Assembly: GCF_035084215.1 (NCBI RefSeq)
Contig: NC_090365.1
Coordinates: 13,454,001 to 13,518,000 of the forward strand
Source of the DNA: Heptranchias perlo
Lineage: Eukaryota
Length of the DNA: 64,000 nucleotides
Direction: 5' to 3'
The translations under genes were made by a program, and so were the position numbers. This document shows positions 55,571 through 56,645 of the stretch, piece by piece. The stretch's first letter is position 1. Each line of letters opens with the position of its first letter. Under the pieces are notes generated by a model, which was not told where the DNA came from, ran no database searches, and saw only the letters and a program-made list of their open reading frames with translations.

Positions 55571-56179
55571 GTGCTCTCATATATTCTGCTGACTCTTAAC
55601 TACAAAATGCTGGTGAAAAATGGACCAATTTTATACAGAATCCTATAAATTTGGTAACATACCAATTGCTCCATCTGCAGTGTGTTTTGACTGTAACAGT
55701 GCAGACTTCCGATGGGTTTAAAATGCAGTCAGAGTCCTAGAGAACTGGTTTGAACAGGGGGGAGGAATGGCATGAACACAACTATTCCTGCCAGCGTGTC
55801 AATGTGATGAACTATGTCTGAAAGAGACAGTTGGTTACAATAAAACAGGCCAAAGTATTGGCGTTATCTGTCTTAGCTCCTGCAGTGACACAGACTGTAA
55901 CTCCAGGAGCCTTGGCACCACTTTTACATTACTTTCGTCAGTGTGACACTGCAGATCTGTGCTGCAGGTTTAGTATCCGTGTTCTCATTGAGAAGTGTTT
56001 CTGCAGTGTGTGAGCCAGGGAGGATAGAGAGTCACACAGCAGTGGGAATGTACAAAAATAAATGCTTAAATGTTTTTAAATATAACTCTTCCAATGCATG
56101 TCCCTTGTAATAGTGAAAAATTTACAAGGGGAACCATCTTCTCTGTCCTCACTCTCTTTCTCTGTCAAGCTATCTCTAG

Positions 56180-56387
56180 ATGTGGAGATGCCGGTGATGG
56201 ACTGGGGTTGACAATTGTAAACAATTTTACAACACCAAGTTATAGTCCAGCAATTTTATTTTAAATTCACAAGCTTTCGGAGGCTTCCTCCTTCGTCATT
56301 TACCTGACGAAGGAGGAAGCCTCCGAAAGCTTGTGAATTTAAAATAAAATTGCTGGACTATAACTTGGTGTTGTAAAATTGTTTACA
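56180..56387. mobile_element. palindromic non-autonomous Penelope-like-element terminus insertion with hammerhead core
   Basis: perfect 83-bp inverted arms 56216-56298 and 56305-56387; flanked by direct repeat CAAGCTATCTCTAG (56166-56179, 56386-56399); sequence matches the PLE 3' end at 62501-62626. Confidence 0.9.
56298..56338 (+). ncRNA. minimal type I hammerhead ribozyme motif (palindrome copy)
   Basis: AUUUAC-CUGACGA-A-GGAGG(AAG)CCUCC-GAAA-GCUU-GUGAAU; stem I AUUUAC/GUGAAU. Confidence 0.75.
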
Positions 56388-56397
56388 AGCTATCTCT

Positions 56398-56645
56398 AGC
56401 CCTACAACCCTCCGAGATCTCTGCGCTCCTCCAATTCTGTCCTCTTGCGCATCCCCAACTTCCTTCGCTCTACCATTGGCGGCCGTGCCTTCAACTGCCT
56501 AGGCCCTAAGCTCTAGAATTCCCTCCCTAAACCTCTCCATCTCTCTACCTCTCTCTCCTCCTTTAAGATGCTCCTTAAAACCTACCTCTTTGACCAAGCT
56601 TTTGGTCACCTGTCCTAATACCTCCTTATGTGGCTCGGTGTCACA
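56398..56645 (+). mobile_element. L2 3' fragment (target of the palindrome insertion)
   Basis: agccctacaaccctccgagatct...ggccctaagctc. Confidence 0.85.

Follow-up and report, generated by a model that had tools for sequence, protein, structure and literature searches.

Genes and Elements at the Locus

The stretch of DNA analyzed here, referred to as the window, comprises 64,000 nucleotides from Heptranchias perlo. A SNAP-25-family gene had been proposed for the minus strand in an earlier sequence-only reading, and five exons could be assigned to it between positions 19360 and 50734. The exon nearest to the palindrome described below is found at 50686-50734 after an AG acceptor, 5.4 kb away, and the further exons are located at approximately 39834-39951, 31286-31417, 27733-27877, and 19360-19419. 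The assignment was based on short motif scans and single-exon searches. Exon 31286-31417 matched PF00835 (E = 2e-18) and the exon at approximately 27733-27877 matched SNAP-25 in PDB (E = 1e-18), while Pfam at its cut-off matched one of three exons. The window yielded no exon preceding 50686-50734, so that the palindrome probably lies in an intron of this gene, which we take to be of a divergent type with a last exon (…ANKHANKML) resembling that of electric-ray SNAP-25. Two assembly gaps (19474-19797 and 19847-20103, 581 N in all) are located just upstream of the last exon. Minisatellite arrays were observed at 1-1000, 5570-8600, 9240-9890, 10860-11430, 30370-31100, and 55220-55610, with periods of 36, 19/38, 27, ~20-24, 25, and 33 nt and some units being 96-98% identical.

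A Penelope-like element (PLE) is located on the plus strand at 60742-62628. It is 5'-truncated within the reverse transcriptase (RT), carries ~3 frameshifts and has a tail. Its ORF (60742-62246) contains RT, a CX4CxxC linker, and GIY-YIG with CCHH; the linker and the CCHH pattern are visible in ORF 61589-62056. The RT matched Pfam RVT_1 (E = 2e-10), while GIY-YIG (E = 3e-4) scored 21.5 bits against a cut-off of 22.6 and is therefore just under it. A CX2-5CxxC linker before a C-terminal GIY-YIG with CCHH marks Neptune or Nematis PLEs (PMC8557442). The Neptune-type linker previously read in this ORF is thus present, but as a character that Neptune has in common with Nematis.

In four pieces, the ORF is 89-96% identical to a Heptranchias perlo protein cluster. 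Protein relatives were sought among proteins of 537-2000 residues, which gave 218 matches. The best 120 of the 218 were inspected; the best full-length matches among those listed came from the sharks Heptranchias perlo (93%) and Scyliorhinus torazame (85%), and named reference PLEs were not found among these 120. Relatives of the ORF carry both RT and GIY-YIG. An Atlas search gave only RT clusters without names. The epn2 gene model of Heptranchias perlo takes in ~190 residues of RT from this PLE family, probably through a gene-prediction or exonisation event.

The pLTR end of the element (62501-62628, plus strand) served as our reference. It contains a hammerhead at 62501-62541, an inner end point at 62588-62591 and, after the tail, an outer end point at 62626-62628. 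Folding of the pLTR end gave no structure above shuffles (z = -0.19 and -1.75) and left the "AC-rich stem-loop" at RT start sites unconfirmed. No direct repeat >7 nt was found as a target site duplication (TSD) of this element, and a search of the window for its inverted 5' partner found none.

An Exact Palindrome Between Short Direct Repeats

An exhaustive scan for exact hairpins with loops of 0-30 nt identified inverted arms of 84 bp at 56215-56298 and 56305-56388 around the loop TTTACC. The runner-up exact hairpin with a loop of ≤30 nt in the whole 64 kb had arms of 12 bp. The arms had been described as exact reverse complements of 83 bp around a 6-nt loop. Exactness and loop hold, while the arm length is 84 rather than 83 bp, as the right arm and the flanking repeat overlap by the final 3 nt of the arm.

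This repeat, the 14-mer CAAGCTATCTCTAG, was correctly noted to flank the unit and occurs at exactly two sites in the 64 kb, which represent the left (56166-56179, plus strand) and right (56386-56399, plus strand) TSD copies. Its left copy shares 2 nt and its right copy 3 nt with homology to the element, so that the duplication measures between 9 bp (both overlaps subtracted) and 14 bp (maximal). The chance of such a repeat per site pair is 4e-9 for the 14 nt and 4e-6 for the 9-nt core free of element homology.

The insert between the TSD copies is 206 bp long. It begins with a PLE tail (56180-56214, minus strand), which corresponds to 62592-62626 and is found on the left side only; the length of this asymmetric extension is given as 35-40 nt because the junction is ambiguous. 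The left arm (56215-56298) carries pLTR 62508-62591 in sense orientation on the minus strand and begins at hammerhead U4, with an A replacing C3. The loop (56299-56304, plus strand) corresponds to sense PLE 62502-62507 (TTCACC) at five of six positions. In the right arm (56305-56388) the pLTR is in sense orientation on the plus strand, without a tail, and the final 3 nt overlap the TSD. A CA/TG microhomology of 2 nt (56297-56298) is common to both halves at the inversion junction. The insert also contains one AATAAA on the host-gene strand (56255-56260, minus strand), within the hairpin stem, as a possible cryptic poly(A) signal.

A fold-back chimera from assembly or library preparation would mirror the flank. 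Here, the symmetry ends exactly at the 14-bp direct repeat and the two flanks are unlike each other. What is asymmetric in the insert is the tail, a part that is expected on biological grounds. Although the arms are perfect and inverted PLE structures trouble assemblies (PMC8557442), an assembly artefact is unlikely, and we give this explanation almost no weight.

The Insert Derives From a PLE Terminus

Both arms were found to be ~92% identical to the 3' end of the dead PLE 6 kb away. The left arm with its extension, when reverse-complemented, matched the PLE end 62508-62628 at 113 of 121 nt, and the right arm matched 62500-62591 at 84 of 92 nt. The sequence-only reading had matched the extension to the extreme 3' end of the PLE, and the two agree at 34 of 35 nt. 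With both arms and the tail matching the 3' end of the neighbour, the PLE origin of the palindrome stands; both outer ends of the insert are PLE 3' termini arranged head-to-head. The arms have 7 differences from the neighbouring PLE in common. Beyond the palindrome and the neighbouring PLE, no further pLTR or RT copies were found in the 64-kb window. The neighbour is a dead copy of the same PLE family as the insert, not necessarily its donor. Over 121 nt, the left arm (56178-56298) is also 93% identical, in inverted orientation, to the PLE end 62508-62628, which lies 6.2 kb away, and the two could pair in one pre-mRNA.

Typical PLE insertions include an inverted 5'-truncated copy and a tail of 30-40 bp, often at one end only (Craig et al., PMC8557442), and a tail of 30-40 bp is also described in PMC11167929. 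Pairs of minimal hammerhead ribozymes (HHRs) on opposite strands, 100-700 bp apart, have been ascribed to truncated PLEs (Cervera and De la Pena, 2014; PMC4209133). The earlier statement that PLE termini carry minimal hammerheads and often occur as inverted partial copies is in line with this published architecture. The insert has the features of EN+ PLEs, namely head-to-head 3' termini, a tail of 35-40 nt at one end and a TSD of 9-14 bp; RT with a C-terminal GIY-YIG is provided by the neighbouring ORF, the GIY-YIG being just under the curated cut-off.

An extremely truncated inverted insertion was one of two alternatives considered before, and it is the one supported here: the palindrome is very probably a truncated inverted PLE insertion. 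The insert is an inert insertion of a shark EN+ PLE that consists solely of two head-to-head pLTR stubs. It can have arisen in one event, and the ability to move again is not required. The locus is an ordinary dead transposon scar, but with an unusually clean footprint.

Flanking Repeat and Age of the Insertion

To the right of the insert lies an interspersed repeat fragment (56394-56646, plus strand) that is presumably L2-like. It is 87-89% identical to three other copies in the window and has its 5' edge inside the TSD. The fragment is a 253-bp internal piece, which stops abruptly on its 3' side (56646), earlier than the other copies. An empty site constructed in silico was compared with a consensus built from four other copies. 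The two agreed at 224 of 241 nt on the right of the TSD, whereas only 7 of 14 nt inside the TSD and 16 of 35 nt to the left matched the repeat consensus. Shuffling of the left piece gave fractions of 0.006, 0.08, and 0.11 against three copies. The insert had been thought to interrupt an L2 relic. The left and TSD matches do not bear out an interruption, which is uncertain; from these alignments the insertion sits at the 5' edge of the L2-like fragment.

The zero mismatches in 84 bp limit the arm divergence to <3.5% (95%) and make the level of the neighbour, 7 in 84, unlikely (P = 7e-4). Arm-to-arm conversion can also erase differences. A mutation rate of 7e-10 per base per generation has been reported for another shark species (PMC10587355), and arithmetic on this rate converts the 3.5% bound to up to ~2.5e7 generations. 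The insertion, previously called young, is therefore young in a relative sense only.

A Hairpin in the Host Transcript

RNA of the insert was predicted to fold into a hairpin of -160 kcal/mol on the plus strand and -157 kcal/mol on the minus strand. Since the latter is the strand of the SNAP-25-family exons, the hairpin might serve as a functional or exapted intronic dsRNA in snap25 pre-mRNA, as a substrate for ADAR or small-RNA production. We regard this as very improbable. The nearest exon is 5.4 kb away, and longer inverted pairs of 414 and 253 nt at 88% identity are located within 50735-64000, so that dsRNA is nothing special in this interval. All matches to miRNA families were below gathering scores, the best one reaching 103.6 bits where 249 are needed for a miRNA precursor. 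A-to-G editing is expected of any such hairpin.

The Hammerhead Is Predicted to Be a Passenger

The palindrome contains a minimal type I hammerhead motif (56298-56338, plus strand) with a predicted cut after 56332. The motif consists of stem I ATTTAC/GTGAAT, CUGACGA, one unpaired A, a 5-bp stem II, and GAAA-GCUU. A hammerhead-core scan of both strands of the window gave only two matches, in the right arm and in the neighbouring PLE. According to the motif scan both show the minimal-HHR features listed in PMC4209133, i.e., a CUGANGA/GAAA/NUH core, an extra nucleotide between 9 and 10.1, G10.1-C11.1 and palindromic 15.2-16.2. In Rfam no family reached its gathering score in the window, and no hammerhead family matched either HHR region at E up to 10; at that threshold 7 chance-level matches were obtained at the PLE end and 22 generic hairpin matches at the palindrome, none at family score. 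Because of this, the ribozyme call rests on inspection of motif and structure, which supports the minimal hammerhead noted before. The earlier observation that the plus arm keeps stem I and CUGACGA while the minus arm lacks C3 was also borne out.

When the insertion transcript was constrained to the hammerhead fold, its energy was -104 kcal/mol compared to -160 kcal/mol unconstrained, a penalty of 56 kcal/mol, and all 11 pairs of stems I and II had a probability of 0.000000. In these models the hammerhead is a passenger, which cannot fold inside the 84-bp hairpin that sequesters it, and self-cleavage is predicted to be blocked. The pair probabilities, together with the absence of retrozyme hallmarks, argue against a "ribozyme-bearing" family in the functional sense.

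Since the palindrome folds back at the hammerhead core, the junction had been linked to the ribozyme. Cleavage is predicted 28 nt after C3, while the halves of the palindrome end at -7 and +1, so that 27-35 nt separate the inversion junction from the cleavage site downstream. We rejected the idea that ribozyme cleavage caused the junction, as the position is wrong and the core is retained; a predicted transcription start, described below, explains the junction better. An uncleaved template is implied by the presence of the core, which lies upstream of the cut, and uncleaved RNA is used as template in vitro by the anole PLE protein (PMC11167929).

Origin of the Inversion Junction

Read along the minus strand, target DNA is followed by antisense PLE from the inner end point to 62500 and then by sense PLE through the tail. 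On the plus strand, target DNA is followed by antisense PLE from the tail end to 62508 and then by sense PLE. From its 3' end, each target strand runs into antisense PLE, which begins at the outer end point in one case and 35-40 nt deeper in the element in the other. The halves end at the 5' edge of the hammerhead, at positions separated by 8 nt, and are joined over 2 nt. On the plus strand the loop matches sense and not antisense PLE, and it therefore belongs to the tail-less arm. This excludes the self-primed fold-back of a single cDNA that had been suggested earlier: the strand with the antisense loop is without a tail to copy and could not have templated one. Simple fold-back of one target-primed cDNA was rejected on this ground.

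The loop polarity fits priming from both target strands at two RT start sites. Both primer ends have 2-3 nt of complementarity to the template. In the neighbour the outer end point is located 119-121 nt from C3. The outer site of the anole element is 111-118 nt into the ORF (PMC11167929), or ~116-123 nt from C3 with the C3 offset counted by eye on the template printed there. Cleavage and extension of both target strands have been shown in vitro for the anole PLE protein, which uses two internal RT starts bracketing the tail and for which a dimer is predicted (PMC11167929).

The neighbouring PLE has a TATA box, TATAAAAG, at 62471-62478 (plus strand), which is the sole TATAWAWR on the plus strand in 60770-62628 and predicts a start at ~62499-62501. 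TATAWAWR and BBCABW were taken by us as the TATA and initiator consensus patterns. The junction is 29-30 nt downstream of the TATA box, at a CA, with an initiator-like match to BBCABW at 62499. The 21 TATAWAWR found on the plus strand in 64 kb correspond to a chance of ~0.2% for a 7-nt window at a given point, in an argument that is post hoc, takes an 8%-diverged neighbour as reference and concerns a single locus. A promoter at 62471 would drive a start near 62499-62501, and the cDNAs probably ran off the 5' end of the transcript at the junction. TATA/Inr-like motifs are present in Adineta pLTRs (PMC3846280), while the Penelope promoter of D. virilis is internal and TATA-less (PMC2377424), which counts against the argument.

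Two further observations concern these motifs. If active, the TATA box and initiator-like CA at 62471-62501 (plus strand) would drive transcription in the antisense direction relative to the SNAP-25-family gene. A TATA-like run is also apparent by eye in the anole template given in PMC11167929; it is followed 30 nt later by a CA, and the hammerhead core comes shortly thereafter.

We propose the following route, which we hold to be correct with moderate confidence. The GIY-YIG nuclease would make a staggered cut in the target, and the RT would extend both target 3' ends from two internal start sites (twin priming). The template would be an uncleaved RNA begun at the pLTR promoter. With only ~90 and ~125 nt between the start sites and the 5' end of the RNA, the two cDNAs would run off almost immediately, after which their 3' ends would anneal over CA/TG and repair would fill in. 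An RNA begun at the predicted +1 would open with the ribozyme (stem I from 62501), and run-off would center the palindrome on the core; the start of stem I at the predicted +1 would be the sole reason for this centering. RNA across the resulting insert would fold as the 84-bp hairpin and silence the ribozyme.

In twin priming by L1, both target strands prime cDNA, the inversion is joined by microhomology, and a TSD is formed, as in the insert. In L1, however, the parts joined by an inversion come from one RNA without overlapping, and no palindrome results. Here, a single stretch would be copied by both cDNAs, starting at two 3'-type sites, and this would require either two templates or strand displacement, which counts against the twin-priming route. 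So does the finding that the two strands showed no difference in start site in vitro, the site being described as non-homologous to the target (PMC11167929). Application of twin priming to PLEs was not found in a literature search that covered few subscription papers.

A self-primed hairpin that is resected asymmetrically by a nuclease would yield the identical sequence. In such a pathway an antisense template or free cDNA folds at CA/TG into a hairpin including the tail, the nuclease trims the tail from one arm and the product inserts. Self-priming has been published for palindromes at head-to-head junctions (PMC3846280) and EN-mediated resolution has been put forward as the source of the tail (PMC8557442). 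The insert has the 2-bp stem and 6-nt loop, and the minus strand junction folds locally. However, a template longer than the kept arm and an extra cut are required, simple fold-back of target-primed cDNA is ruled out by the loop polarity, and later in vitro work attributes the tail to two RT starts (PMC11167929). The CA/TG microhomology does not discriminate between the routes because 68 of 131 pLTR positions offer a 2-nt fold-back microhomology. We consider self-priming unlikely, but worth keeping in mind.

The formation of inverted pLTRs by PLEs has been described as unresolved (PMC8557442), and one published explanation needs an antisense template (PMC3846280). Twin priming with run-off, as suggested by this locus, is a simpler route that is consistent with the biochemistry from 2024 (PMC11167929). 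If it is true, junctions should be piled at TATA+30 genome-wide, with ends at the two known end points and primer-template matches of 2-3 nt.

Independent Insertions or a Mobile Family

The insert could also be a member of a self-propagating, non-autonomous palindromic family that is mobilised in trans by the PLE protein. pLTR sequence is enough for mobilisation in trans (PMC3846280), and non-autonomous PLEs such as MRC1 exist (PMC8557442). The insert retains both end points and a single-stranded tail, and the 7 differences from the neighbour are common to its arms. Such membership is nevertheless quite improbable. The 64 kb contain no further copy, the insert has no TATA box, and the hairpin encloses both the ribozyme and the inner start site. 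The head-to-tail tandem arrangement of retrozymes is also missing, and a family is not required to account for the structure. Palindromic non-autonomous PLEs in vertebrates were likewise not found in this literature search. In a more specific version, which strikes us as equally far-fetched, the 206-bp unit is a copy of a MITE-like palindromic retroelement. A minus strand read-through RNA would end in a free tail, where the PLE protein would start and copy through the hairpin, while the hairpin would keep the ribozyme off and the template whole.

The sequence-only reading had proposed that copies sharing the same loop and arm lengths would reveal a family. This test does not discriminate: if the RNA 5' end sets the junction, independent insertions would have loop and arm lengths in common. 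A family would be shown only by shared diagnostic substitutions that form a clade apart from autonomous copies. It is conceivable, although we hold it only tentatively, that palindromes of exactly this shape have arisen independently many times in shark genomes. Their junctions would then indicate the transcription start, and they would show that head-to-head inverted pLTRs result from priming on both target strands. Stereotyped by-products of PLEs can pass for MITE-like families or miRNA hairpins.

Comparison With Known Systems

Metazoan non-LTR retrozymes (PMC7229834) are, like the insert, short, non-coding and AT-rich, with a type I hammerhead and a TSD. They consist of head-to-tail tandems with canonical, foldable HHRs and form circRNAs, whereas the insert is head-to-head, has a minimal and blocked HHR, and is wholly derived from the pLTR of a PLE. 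A retrozyme was rejected for the insert, which is a single head-to-head unit and not a head-to-tail tandem of 150-450 bp (PMC7229834), and whose minimal HHR, with its stem I/II probability of 0.000000, is not free to fold as a canonical one. The min-HHR pairs of Schistosoma (PMC4209133) resemble the insert in having two copies close together on opposite strands that come from a truncated PLE. Their spacing is ~100-700 bp, whereas here the cores abut and one is without C3 and stem I.

Poseidon PAc of Anolis carolinensis (Frangieh et al., 2024; PMC11167929) has two end points that bracket the tail, a similar distance from hammerhead core to outer end, an uncleaved RNA template and extension of both target strands. 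PAc belongs to the Poseidon clade and its ORF starts at stem II, while the element studied here has a CX2-5CxxC linker and no ATG from the pLTR through the tail. The available text of PMC11167929 does not derive inverted pLTRs from priming on two strands.

The structure agrees with that of Penelope insertions. Those of Adineta are accompanied by a neighbouring pLTR in inverted orientation and by a TSD of 8-10 bp; one pLTR may carry a 31-bp tail, and palindromes occur at the inverted junction (PMC3846280). Like Pen2a, Pen2, and Pen3a of Adineta and Penelope of D. virilis, the insert combines head-to-head inverted pLTRs with a tail at one end, a short TSD, a palindrome at the junction, and a minimal HHR in the pLTR. 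Unlike these, it is without an ORF or a direct pLTR between the inverted termini, and its stubs measure 89 and 119 nt compared to ~180-220 bp for Adineta pLTRs. The insert represents no new system; it is the published architecture of PLE insertions cut to its minimum, with the ORF reduced to nothing.
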